NCBI RefSeq assembly: GCF_048403405.1
Contig: NZ_CP183129.1
Source: Escherichia coli
Lineage (GTDB): Bacteria; Pseudomonadota; Gammaproteobacteria; Enterobacterales; Enterobacteriaceae
Length of the DNA: 64,000 nt
Direction: 5' to 3' (one strand)
Position 1 is the stretch's first letter. Each line of letters starts with the position of its first letter. The position numbers are program-made. Below are positions 28,101 to 31,100 of the stretch, piece after piece.

Positions 28101-31100
28101 TTCCCGTGACTTATTTCCGTATTAATCCTGTTCTGGCGCTGCTGCTGTTGCTGACGGCAATCGCAGCGGCGCTGCCGTTTATCAGTTACGCGCCTAATCG
28201 TTTAGTTTCGGGTGAGGGGCGTCATCTCTGGCAGCTGTGGCCGCAAACGATCTGGATGCTGGTGGGCGTTGGTTGCGCCTGGATGACAGCCTGTTTTATT
28301 CCCGCTAAAAAAGGCAGCATTTTTGCACTCATTCTGGCGCAATTCGTCTTCGTATTGCTGGTGTGGGGAGCAGGAAAGGCGGCGACACAACTGGCACAAA
28401 ATGGCAGTGCGCTGGCGCGTACCAGCCTCGGCAGTGGTTTCTGGCTGGCTGCGGCGCTGGCATTGCTGGCCTGTAGCGATGCCATCCGACGAATCTCCAC
28501 GCATCCGCTGTGGCGCTGGTTGTTGCATATGCAGATTGCCATCATTCCGCTGTGGTTGCTGTATTCCGGCGCGCTTAACGATCTCTCGCTAATGAAAGAA
28601 TACGCCAACCGTCAGGATGTGTTTGATGACGCGCTGGCGCAACATCTGACGTTGCTGTTTGGTGCGGTGCTGCCTGCGTTAGTGATTGGTGTGCCGCTGG
28701 GCGTCTGGTGCTACTTTTCCACTGCGCGGCAGGGGGCGATTTTTTCTCTGCTGAATGTCATTCAGACCGTGCCTTCGGTGGCGCTCTTTGGCCTGTTGAT
28801 TGCGCCGCTTGCCGCACTGGTTACGGCCTTTCCGTGGCTGGGTAAGCTCGGCATAGCAGGAACCGGAATGACACCCGCACTGATTGCGCTGGTGCTCTAT
28901 GCCTTGCTGCCGCTGGTGCGCGGCGTGGTAGTCGGCTTGAACCAGATCCCGCGCGATGTGCTGGAGAGCGCCAGAGCGATGGGCATGAGCGGGGCGCAGC
29001 GATTCCTGCATGTTCAGTTACCGCTGGCGTTACCGGTATTTCTGCGCAGCCTGCGGGTGGTGATGGTGCAAACTGTAGGTATGGCGGTGATTGCGGCGTT
29101 AATCGGTGCAGGCGGTTTTGGTGCGCTGGTTTTCCAGGGGCTGCTAAGCAGTGCCATTGATTTAGTGTTGCTGGGGGTGATCCCGGTAATTGTTCTGGCG
29201 GTGCTTACCGACGCGCTGTTCGATTTGCTTATCGCACTGCTGAAGGTGAAACGTAATGATTGAATTTAGCCATGTCAGCAAACTGTTCGGCGCACAAAAA
29301 GCCGTTAACGATCTCAATCTCAATTTTCAGGAAGGGAGTTTTTCGGTGCTGATTGGCACTTCTGGCTCCGGCAAATCCACCACCCTGAAAATGATTAACC
29401 GCCTGGTGGAGCATGACAGCGGCGTGATCCGCTTTGCCGGAGAAGAAATTCGCTCGCTGCCAGTGCTGGAGTTGCGCCGCCGGATGGGCTATGCCATTCA
29501 ATCTATTGGCCTGTTTCCCCACTGGAGCGTGGCGCAAAATATTGCCACCGTGCCGCAATTACAAAAATGGTCACGGGCGCGGATTGACGATCGTATCGAC
29601 GAATTAATGGCGCTACTGGGGCTGGAGCCAAATTTGCGTGAGCGTTATCCGCATCAGCTTTCTGGCGGTCAGCAGCAACGTGTGGGAGTGGCGCGCGCAC
29701 TGGCTGCCGATCCGCAAGTCTTACTGATGGATGAACCTTTTGGCGCACTGGACCCGGTAACGCGCGGCGCGTTGCAACAAGAGATGACGCGCATTCACCG
29801 TTTGCTGGGGCGCACTATTGTGCTGGTCACTCATGATATTGATGAGGCGCTACGGCTGGCAGAACATCTGGTATTGATGGATCACGGTGAAGTGGTGCAG
29901 CAGGGCAATCCGCTGACGATGCTGACTCGTCCGGCGAATGATTTTGTCCGCCAGTTTTTTGGGCATAGTGAACTGGGTGTCCGCCTGCTTTCGTTACGTA
30001 GTGTGGCGGATTACGTGCGTCGCGAAGAACGGGCAGAAGGTGAGGCACTGGCAGAAGAGATGACGCTACGCGATGCGCTCTCCCTGTTTGTCGCGCGGGG
30101 ATGCGAGGTGCTGCCGGTGGTGAACACGCAGGGCCAGCCTTGCGGCACGCTGCATTTTCAGGATCTGCTGGTGGAGGCGTAAGCGTATGAAGATGTTGCG
30201 CGATCCGCTGTTCTGGCTCATTGCTTTGTTTGTGGCACTGCTTTTCTGGCTGCCTTACAGCCAGCCGCTGTTTGCTGCCTTGTTCCCACAACTGCCACGA
30301 CCCGTTTATCAGCAGGAAAGCTTTGCAGCTCTGGCACTGGCTCATTTCTGGCTGGTGGGAATTTCGAGTTTGTTTGCGGTGATCATTGGTACTGGTGCCG
30401 GAATTATTGTTACTCGCCCGTGGGGCGCGGAATTTCGCCCACTGGTGGAAACTATTGCCGCCGTTGGGCAGACTTTTCCGCCCGTTGCGGTGCTGGCGAT
30501 TGCCGTTCCGGTGATTGGCTTTGGTCTGCAACCCGCGATTATCGCCTTGATCCTTTACGGCGTGCTGCCCGTCCTGCAGGCGACACTTGCCGGGCTGGGA
30601 GCGATTGATGTCAGCGTGACAGAAGTTGCGAAAGGTATGGGAATGAGCCGTGGTCAGCGACTGCGTAAGGTCGAGCTACCGCTGGCGGCTCCGGTGATTC
30701 TGGCGGGCGTGCGAACTTCGGTGATTATCAACATTGGTACGGCGACGATTGCCTCAACGGTAGGGGCCAGCACGCTGGGTACGCCGATCATCATCGGGCT
30801 TAGCGGATTTAATACCGCGTATGTGATCCAGGGGGCGTTACTGGTGGCACTGGCGGCGATCATTGCAGACCGCCTGTTTGAAAGGCTGGTGCAGGCGCTT
30901 AGCCAGCACGCAAAATAAAGGTATAACCTGCGAGCATGACGCCACCAATTCCGCCTAACGCCATAAACAGGAACAGGGCGATGACCCCAATTTTAGCTAT
31001 GCGCATAATGCACTCCTTATGTTAACGAAAGGATTGTACAGTAAAGCGCATTTGTTAACGAATCATTAAATGCCGAGTGGGAAAATATCATGGCCTTGTT

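Follow-up and report, generated by a model that had tools for sequence, protein, structure and literature searches.

The window analyzed here is a stretch of 64,000 nt of Escherichia coli DNA (RefSeq assembly GCF_048403405.1, contig NZ_CP183129.1), in which the small gene yohO and the transporter gene yehW converge and share the ends of their coding sequences (Table 1). According to RefSeq, yehW encodes a permease subunit and is the last gene of the osmF-yehY-yehX-yehW operon, which specifies a glycine betaine ABC transporter. The convergent overlap, already pointed out in an earlier note on this DNA, is found both in our ORF list and in the RefSeq annotation. Bases 30899-30901, read on the complementary strand, form the yohO stop codon (TAA), and that of yehW (TAA) occupies 30916-30918. 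The shared bases encode the tail (L)SQHAK of YehW on the plus strand and the tail (F)ILRAG of YohO on the minus strand, each followed by its stop. Positions 3, 2, and 1 of the yehW codons fall on positions 2, 3, and 1 of the yohO codons, respectively. Hence, a change that is silent in one frame is never silent in the other. Five convergent CDS pairs occur in the 40.7 kb around the locus, and yohO-yehW is the only one that overlaps, the remaining four being separated by gaps of 38-372 nt.

Table 1. Features of the yohO-yehW locus, with positions in the window.
Feature	Position	Strand	Basis and remarks
yehW CDS	30187..30918	+	ORF list, Pfam BPD_transp_1 (1.1e-27), RefSeq; 243 aa
Convergent yohO/yehW CDS overlap	30899..30918	both	20 nt, both stop codons included
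yohO CDS	30899..31006	-	ORF list; ATG start, 35 aa and TAA stop
yohO product			UPF0387 membrane protein YohO, small, one hydrophobic helix
yohO Shine-Dalgarno sequence, AAGGAG	31013..31018	-	read from sequence; precedes the ATG (31006-31004) by 6 nt
Probable yohO -10 hexamer	31033..31038	-	from conservation; TACAAT here, TATAAT in most genera
Conserved block TTAATGATTCGTTAACA	31053..31069	-	alignment of 79 loci; upstream of the yohO -10 hexamer
mlrA CDS	31066..31797	-	upstream neighbor of yohO on the same strand, 59 nt away

The identity of yohO is well established. The translation of its frame in the ORF list is exactly the 35 residues quoted in the earlier note, and the peptide is an exact match to UniProt YOHO_ECOLI. 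RefSeq names the product "protein YohO" (WP_001216963.1), and both coding sequences, with their 20-nt overlap, are likewise annotated by RefSeq/PGAP in a strain whose sequence matches 30600-31300 at 100% identity. The peptide passes the NCBIfam equivalog model NF010225 (80.1 bits for a cut-off of 57, E 8.8e-23) over its full length (1-35 of 35). The gene names and product size given previously thus agree with RefSeq, NF010225, and YOHO_ECOLI. Pfam family PF27791 (UPF0387_membrane) is recorded, as a precomputed match, on YohO homologues, while YohO itself gave no match in our local copy of Pfam. A PDB sequence search and an Rfam search over 29000-33000 each returned nothing at E<=1. Using the 35-aa sequence as a query, HMMER retrieved only 17 representatives at E<=1e-3, a good part of which are variants with truncations or frameshifts. 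Over 50 unique YohO sequences, residues G19, G22, V23, M24, L25, G27, and Y28 are invariant and lie in a glycine-rich core, [GS]-G-I-[GS]-G-V-M-L-A-G-Y. As far as its sequence can tell, the product has the family hallmarks, i.e., 35-37 aa, one predicted hydrophobic helix, and the core G-I-[GS]-G-V-M-L-A-G-Y.

Published data concur. Membrane association of YohO is stated in the literature, and the ribosome profile reported in the same study fits the yohO frame (bioRxiv 10.1101/2020.05.05.079178). Top-down mass spectrometry detects the protein, at a coverage under 50% (PMC12529367). Translation of the minus strand across 30899-31006, on which the earlier reading depended, is therefore documented by two kinds of data. 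The K-12 protein has the same amino acid sequence, its gene occupies the same position between mlrA and yehW, and RefSeq gives it the same 20-nt overlap; there is no difference between the two. Hence, yohO here is the K-12 gene, carried by a different strain of E. coli. RefSeq and UniProt already record the gene, its product, and the coding overlap, and the finding is real, conserved, and known.

The genome scan was anchored on YehW. Its loci come from phylogenetically related Enterobacteriaceae species and correspond to the best 80 of 432 hits to YehW, each with at least 74% YehW identity. Within this set, yohO lies tail-to-tail on yehW in 80 of the 81 loci and has an intact ATG in 79 of the 81. 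The exceptions are one locus lacking yohO (L076) and one carrying a disrupted copy (L007). Wherever yohO is present, in these best 80 of 432 hits as well as in six further loci, the overlap is present too and measures 14-26 nt. Among the YehW-anchored rows it is 26 nt long in 42, 20 nt in 36, 17 nt in two, and 14 nt in one. The 36 rows with 20 nt comprise 34 independent intact loci, the remainder being the window, its duplicate L001, and the disrupted L007. The six further loci, found with two divergent YohO sequences, are all convergent with yehW and all overlap it by 20 nt. The other flank of yohO varies, as it may hold mlrA, metG, an HTH_5 regulator, or a TonB-dependent receptor; in the divergent relatives that have metG, HTH_5, or the receptor instead of mlrA, the overlap is still 20 nt. 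Judging from the sampled loci, the overlap is at least as old as the common ancestor of these Enterobacteriaceae and was kept in every lineage. Such conservation can be explained by inertia, since separating the genes requires the duplication of the shared bases, and it does not follow that the overlap is useful. As for the origin of yohO, we rejected an inverted duplication of the last transmembrane segment of yehW: there is only a 15-nt, 80% inverted repeat, and the BLASTP E-value is 2.6.

The earlier note had also described the shared stretch as doubly constrained, which is only partly supported. Total nucleotide diversity in the overlap is indeed lower than in both single-coding flanks: 0.195 versus 0.23-0.25 in the 20-nt class, and 0.112 versus 0.23 in the 26-nt class. 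Yet the constraint is one-sided, with the YohO frame held and the YehW tail drifting. Along yohO, diversity at codon positions 1, 2, and 3 is 0.18, 0.03-0.09, and 0.42-0.46, which is coding periodicity, and the pattern within the overlap does not differ significantly from that in the rest of the gene. The codon-position pattern of yehW is inverted there (p 0.007 to <0.0001): relative to the rest of yehW, position 2 is 4-fold more variable and position 3 is 2.5- to 12-fold less variable. Conserved YohO residues extend to I31-[VL]32-[RH]33, and YehW ends differently among loci (LSQHAK, LTRHVK, SRHRREQ, ITRYEE). Selection in the overlap thus acts mainly on YohO, and the last 6-8 residues of YehW drift. 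A broken ORF, or a lack of third-position-biased substitution, was sought in the other enterobacterial genera sampled and was not found.

The region upstream of yohO carries conserved signals of its own. The Shine-Dalgarno sequence, in the form (A/C)AGGAG, is kept in almost all genera. In the probable -10 hexamer, T, A, and the final T are invariant in alignments of 27 species, and the block is present with or without mlrA as the upstream neighbor. A simple sigma-70 scan did not call this hexamer because there is no good -35 hexamer at 16-18 nt. Further upstream, the block TTAATGATTCGTTAACA has the genus consensus TTAATGgTTCATTAACA, a near-palindrome TTAATG-N3-CATTAA. In E. coli this block includes the mlrA stop codon (31066-31068), and it is kept where mlrA is 109-529 nt away or undetected in the flank retrieved (L010, L030, L044, L053, L066, L036, L049, L055, and L080). 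It is a candidate for either a -35 region or the binding site of a regulator. The E. coli -10 region, TGTACAAT, resembles half of the MlrA box. This reading was discarded: most genera carry CGTATAAT at that place, and the conserved feature is therefore the -10 hexamer and not an MlrA half-site. An anti-Shine-Dalgarno hairpin suggested by the E. coli fold of the yohO leader was likewise rejected, as 27 species show no conserved pairing. From these signals, the most likely source of yohO transcription is a conserved promoter of its own, located immediately after mlrA.

It is rather unlikely that most expression of yohO in E. coli comes instead from an mlrA-yohO operon, in which it would stand second. 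In favor of such an operon, both genes are on the same strand, the gap between them is 51-79 nt in most genera, and the 59 nt that separate them in E. coli have no terminator-like site, so read-through into yohO is possible in this species. On the other hand, this gap itself holds the conserved -10-like hexamer and the upstream block, and both persist where mlrA is 109-529 nt away, escapes detection in the flank retrieved, or has given way to other genes. The two routes could operate together.

The 3' ends of the two transcripts must also be considered. Because the coding sequences are convergent and overlapping, overlap of the mRNAs is unavoidable once both genes are transcribed. In E. coli, the minus-strand RNA of 30760-31070 folds better than shuffled sequences (z -3.84), and the plus-strand RNA does not (z -0.91). 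Across 25 species, RNAalifold predicted a weak minus-strand structure with next to no covariation (14 pairs, -5.6 kcal/mol, one compensatory pair) and left the plus strand unpaired. A bidirectional terminator within the overlap was accordingly rejected, and so was a conserved hairpin. Since neither strand has a conserved terminator, the yohO and yehW transcripts are expected to overlap by more than 20 nt. The transcripts are known to overlap in MG1655: a 2025 study using ExcludonFinder places yohO-yehW among 165 convergent excludons of this strain, with overlap in at least 50% of 58 RNA-seq samples (PMC12288877). The pair is thus a convergent excludon in the sense of convergent neighbors with overlapping transcripts. 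The earlier claim of antisense mRNA ends accordingly holds, both from the overlapping coding sequences and from the MG1655 list.

These observations fit together in one reading, to which we assign a probability of about 0.9: yohO is a genuine gene for an inner-membrane protein, with its own ATG and Shine-Dalgarno sequence and likely its own promoter, whose overlap with yehW is under selection for the YohO frame and yields transcripts complementary over more than 20 nt. In this reading, translation of yohO starts at its own ATG, which a strong Shine-Dalgarno sequence precedes, and its coding sequence ends within the last seven codons of the convergent yehW. The YohO frame is under purifying selection in the shared bases, with the extreme C-terminal tail of YehW tolerating the resulting amino acids. 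RNA polymerases would run into the opposite gene, as neither has a conserved intrinsic terminator nearby. By analogy with other small membrane proteins, YohO would most likely act through helix-helix binding to a larger membrane protein.

We regard it as unlikely that the overlap is a functional excludon, in which colliding polymerases, or RNase III cutting the duplex of the two 3' ends, would make YohO and the OsmF-YehYXW transporter mutually antagonistic and thereby account for the retention of the arrangement. The pair does figure on the MG1655 list, and, given the lack of a conserved terminator, read-through should be long: a yehW transcript would span all 108 nt of yohO, its ribosome-binding site, and its promoter. 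As osmF is a core RpoS-dependent gene, strong conditional transcription would enter yohO. In addition, the overlap was separated in no sampled lineage, although both stop codons moved (14-26 nt). But the excludon label is trivial for any pair with overlapping coding sequences, and the cost of pulling two reading frames apart accounts for the retention just as well. We found no reports of expression anticorrelation, RNase III dependence, or a phenotype for yohO-yehW. In a Shigella RNA-seq study, yohO is down 2.96 log2 anaerobically, and the main text mentions neither the yeh genes nor mlrA.

More generally, it seems decidedly unlikely that the overlap is a selected module, be it that sigma-S-dependent or osmotic read-through from osmF-yehYXW silences yohO, or that YohO is a transmembrane partner of YehW or YehY. 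The second of these proposals makes YohO a transmembrane accessory of the OsmF-YehYXW betaine transporter, either as a subunit or as a regulator, and takes its linkage to yehW as a reflection of this partnership. The gene does stay by yehW while its other flank is swapped (mlrA, metG, HTH_5, or TonB-dependent receptor), and the family is confined, in every context examined, to genomes with the osmF-yehYXW operon. The invariant core of the helix contains many small residues, a composition that would suit tight packing of helices. We nonetheless give the proposal very little credence. The physical overlap alone enforces the linkage, and the synteny of yohO and yehW is therefore no independent evidence of partnership. 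One genome bears YehW without yohO (L076). In addition, the gene lies on the other strand behind a promoter-like block of its own and is therefore not co-transcribed with the transporter genes. Same-operon co-expression with the transporter is thus absent, yohO having its own -10, Shine-Dalgarno sequence, and ATG; this is a trait of KdpF and not of all small proteins accessory to transporters.

Finally, the idea that the yohO frame is open by mere chance, antisense to the 3' flank of yehW, and was propagated by annotation has virtually no probability left: short ORFs are plentiful nearby (49 of at least 20 aa in 3 kb) and the local Pfam search was blank, but codon-periodic conservation across genera, a conserved start codon and Shine-Dalgarno sequence, the match to a curated equivalog model, and detection by ribosome profiling and mass spectrometry already refute it.

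The analysis mainly confirms the annotation, and the antisense overlap of the transcripts was already in a published genome-wide list. The added value is modest and comparative: it concerns the age of the overlap, its survival of changes in the flanks, and its evolution under the frame of the small protein. The locus is a clean natural case of a 35-aa gene dominating selection over the tail of a 243-aa neighbor. It is also a cheap and concrete experimental handle on what YohO does.

Several small membrane proteins bind and modulate transporters, such as KdpF with KdpABC, AcrZ with AcrB, and MgtS with MgtA. YohO resembles them in size (~30-50 aa), in its predicted single transmembrane helix, and in adjoining transporter genes. 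It differs from them in having no known partner protein, and, whereas kdpF is co-transcribed within its operon, yohO is convergent and has its own promoter-like block. The other relevant comparison is with the convergent excludons of MG1655, with which the pair shares convergent neighbors and overlapping transcripts and among which it is listed. Several others on the list also pair a small-protein gene with a larger gene, for example pmrR-basS, ymiD-pdeR, and yncL-patD (PMC12288877). In yohO-yehW the coding sequences themselves overlap, whereas the mean intergenic distance of the MG1655 excludons is 95 nt (PMC12288877).

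The gene yohO overlaps the end of yehW, the last gene of osmF-yehY-yehX-yehW, in convergent orientation (table below). The earlier note was right in this observation and in its gene names; translation of the minus-strand ORF gives the quoted peptide letter for letter. The peptide is identical to UniProt YOHO_ECOLI ("UPF0387 membrane protein YohO") and passes the NCBI curated equivalog model NF010225 ("protein YohO") with 80.1 bits for a cut-off of 57; the product of yehW is an ABC permease with a BPD_transp_1 domain. Of 5426 complete E. coli genomes, 5423 contain the 701 bases around the overlap with an identity of at least 95%, and the features under the match are annotated yehW, yohO, and mlrA. 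The RefSeq annotation of a strain with 100% identity has yehW at 2588-3319 (+) and yohO at 3300-3407 (-) in locus coordinates, i.e., with an equal overlap of 20 nt. YohO was also seen by top-down mass spectrometry in 2025 proteomics work (PMC12529367). A second annotated small-membrane-protein gene, yohP, lies around 13 kb from yohO and is convergent with dusC, at a distance of 372 nt. The longest ORF of btsS (566 aa) starts at a GTG, 15 nt upstream of the ATG used by RefSeq (561 aa), which is a trivial start-codon ambiguity.

Features of the yohO-yehW region and other elements discussed in the text (window positions)
Feature	Position	Strand	Description
yohO ORF	30899..31006	-	ATG start, 35 aa; six-frame ORF list
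yehW ORF	30187..30918	+	243 aa; six-frame ORF list
yohO-yehW overlap	30899-30918	both	20 nt, both stop codons inside; read from sequence
Terminator-like site	30989-30974	-	within yohO CDS
Folded RNA	30760-31070	-	yohO and antisense of yehW 3' end
Near-palindrome	31053-31069	-	TTAATG-N3-C(A/G)TTAA
Decamer, two copies	31020-31029 / 31053-31062		TGTTAACGAA, 33 nt apart
btsS start	32004-32019	+	GTG at 32004
yohP	17659-17742	-	27 aa, MKIILWAVLIIFLIGLLVVTGVFKMIF

We assessed the conservation of the overlap in a set anchored on YehW, comprising the best 80 of 432 matches in one-genome-per-species contigs, all Enterobacteriaceae-like and with YehW identities of 74-96%. In this set, tblastn revealed a YohO homologue directly after yehW, on the opposite strand, in 80 of 81 loci; L076 has no yohO, and pta is the next gene after yehW. 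The coding sequences overlap in every yohO-bearing locus of the set: by 26 nt in 42 loci, by 17 nt in 2, by 14 nt in 1, and by 20 nt in 36 table rows, made up of 34 intact and independent loci together with the window, the L001 duplicate of it, and L007, whose copy is disrupted. In the latter (L007:3213-3320, Citrobacter amalonaticus AUH_CA_2023_1), the N-terminal third of yohO has no in-register ATG (*AQRKSVLSPS...) and the C-terminal 24 residues are intact, possibly because of pseudogenization or an assembly indel error. The 26-nt class includes Enterobacter, Klebsiella, Kosakonia, and others (e.g., L012, L017, L018, L021), and the 20-nt class Escherichia, Citrobacter, and Salmonella. They differ by a 6-nt indel within the shared bases, where the insertion adds two residues to both proteins at once (YohO ...FIVRGGVG, 37 aa; YehW ...SRHRREQ).

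The YohO family is narrow, since among 1.84 billion representatives searched exhaustively with HMMER, just 17 sequences reached E<=1e-3, and many of these were variants with a truncation or frameshift. The two full-length representatives that diverge most were located on contigs in six places, all of which showed a 20-nt overlap onto the permease gene and an intact OpuAC-BPD-ABC-BPD operon. The other neighbour was metG, an HTH_5 regulator, or a TonB-dependent receptor, and not mlrA. Hence, the stable unit is yohO with yehW, not mlrA with yohO.

The earlier note held the shared stretch to be doubly constrained. Within it, position 3 of yehW codons lies on position 2 of yohO, position 2 on position 3, and position 1 on position 1, such that no site is silent in both frames. 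For each region and codon position, we averaged the pairwise diversity between species over the sites. Outside the overlap, positions 1, 2, and 3 have values of 0.12-0.16, 0.06-0.09, and 0.47-0.50 in yehW, and of 0.18, 0.03-0.09, and 0.42-0.46 in yohO. Inside it, yehW position 1 is not significantly different, while position 2 rises to 0.30-0.34 and position 3 falls to 0.04-0.20 (inside vs outside, Mann-Whitney p = 0.006-0.007 in the 20-nt class, <0.0001 in the 26-nt class). When these sites are read in the yohO frame, no significant difference from the remainder of that gene is seen (p 0.07-0.95). Since the codon pattern of yehW is altered and that of yohO is not significantly so, the small gene is the main constraint on the shared bases. 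In the proteins, YohO conservation reaches into the overlap (F30, I31, [VL]32, [RH]33), and the YehW tail varies freely past the conserved DRLFERL (LSQHAK, LTRHVK, SRHRREQ, ITRYEE). Total diversity in the overlap (0.195 and 0.112 in the 20-nt and 26-nt classes) is below that of the flanks (0.23-0.25), in line with the claim, but the constraint is one-sided and the share of YehW was overstated.

Between mlrA and yohO, read on the strand of the latter, the 59-nt gap carries in all genera TTAATGgTTCATTAACA, a spacer of 14 nt (6 nt in the Citrobacter freundii group), TAtAAT, and then TAACA-N-AAGGAG-N5-6-ATG. An alignment of 27 species shows no variation at the first T, the A, or the last T of the hexamer, a pattern characteristic of a -10 element. 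The block is kept where mlrA is 109-529 nt away, undetected in the fetched flank, or replaced. We infer that yohO has its own predicted promoter, which was not among the calls of a simple sigma-70 scan. Transcription may also continue from mlrA into yohO, because there is no terminator between the two genes. Upstream of the hexamer lies a near-palindrome that overlaps the mlrA stop codon in E. coli and is conserved across genera, even without an adjacent mlrA. In E. coli, a decamer occurs on either side of the -10 region. These elements could be regulator binding sites.

In the terminator scan, neither stop codon is closely followed by a terminator-like site; the only one in the vicinity is within yohO, and such sites are no more frequent than shuffles predict. 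With RNAalifold on 25 species, the sequence that follows the yehW stop has no conserved pairs, and the one that follows the yohO stop has a weak structure almost devoid of covariation. Hence, polymerases from each side must enter the opposite gene. This agrees with the presence of yohO-yehW among the 165 convergent excludons found by ExcludonFinder in at least 50% of 58 MG1655 RNA-seq samples (PMC12288877), a published result that already bears out the proposed antisense mRNA ends. The mutual interference raised in the earlier note is a possibility. As osmF is described as a core RpoS-dependent gene in a passage of PMC10654073 citing Checroun and Gutierrez 2004, transcription into yohO is conditional. 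Genomic SELEX placed a weak RpoE-holoenzyme peak within yehW (K-12 W3110 coordinate 2214150; intensity 4.0, type D, inside ORF, flanks yohO / yehX; PMC5493296). The E. coli minus-strand RNA spanning the region folds much better than shuffles (z -3.84, 0/100 as good); this is probably compositional, and we rejected a conserved fold, as the pairing is not kept in other genera. An Rfam search around the overlap found nothing.

Concerning function, we found no solved structural relative of YohO in a PDB sequence search and no similarity between YohO and YehW. The invariant core, rich in small residues, suggests tight helix packing. Some other small membrane proteins bind larger membrane proteins, and by analogy YohO would do so. 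The Yeh permease is a candidate partner, for which linkage is weak evidence because the physical overlap enforces it anyway. In Shigella flexneri, anaerobiosis lowers yohO by 2.96 log2 (PMC4229854). The gene was a first-round match, absent from the final set, in an alanine-export overexpression screen (PMC10299036), and the viable reduced-genome strain DGF-298 lacks a 29-kb region that includes it (PMC10652928). The gene and its overlap with yehW are already known; the comparative evidence added here, namely that the overlap is universally retained, that the YohO frame dominates, and that the promoter-like block is independent, is incremental.
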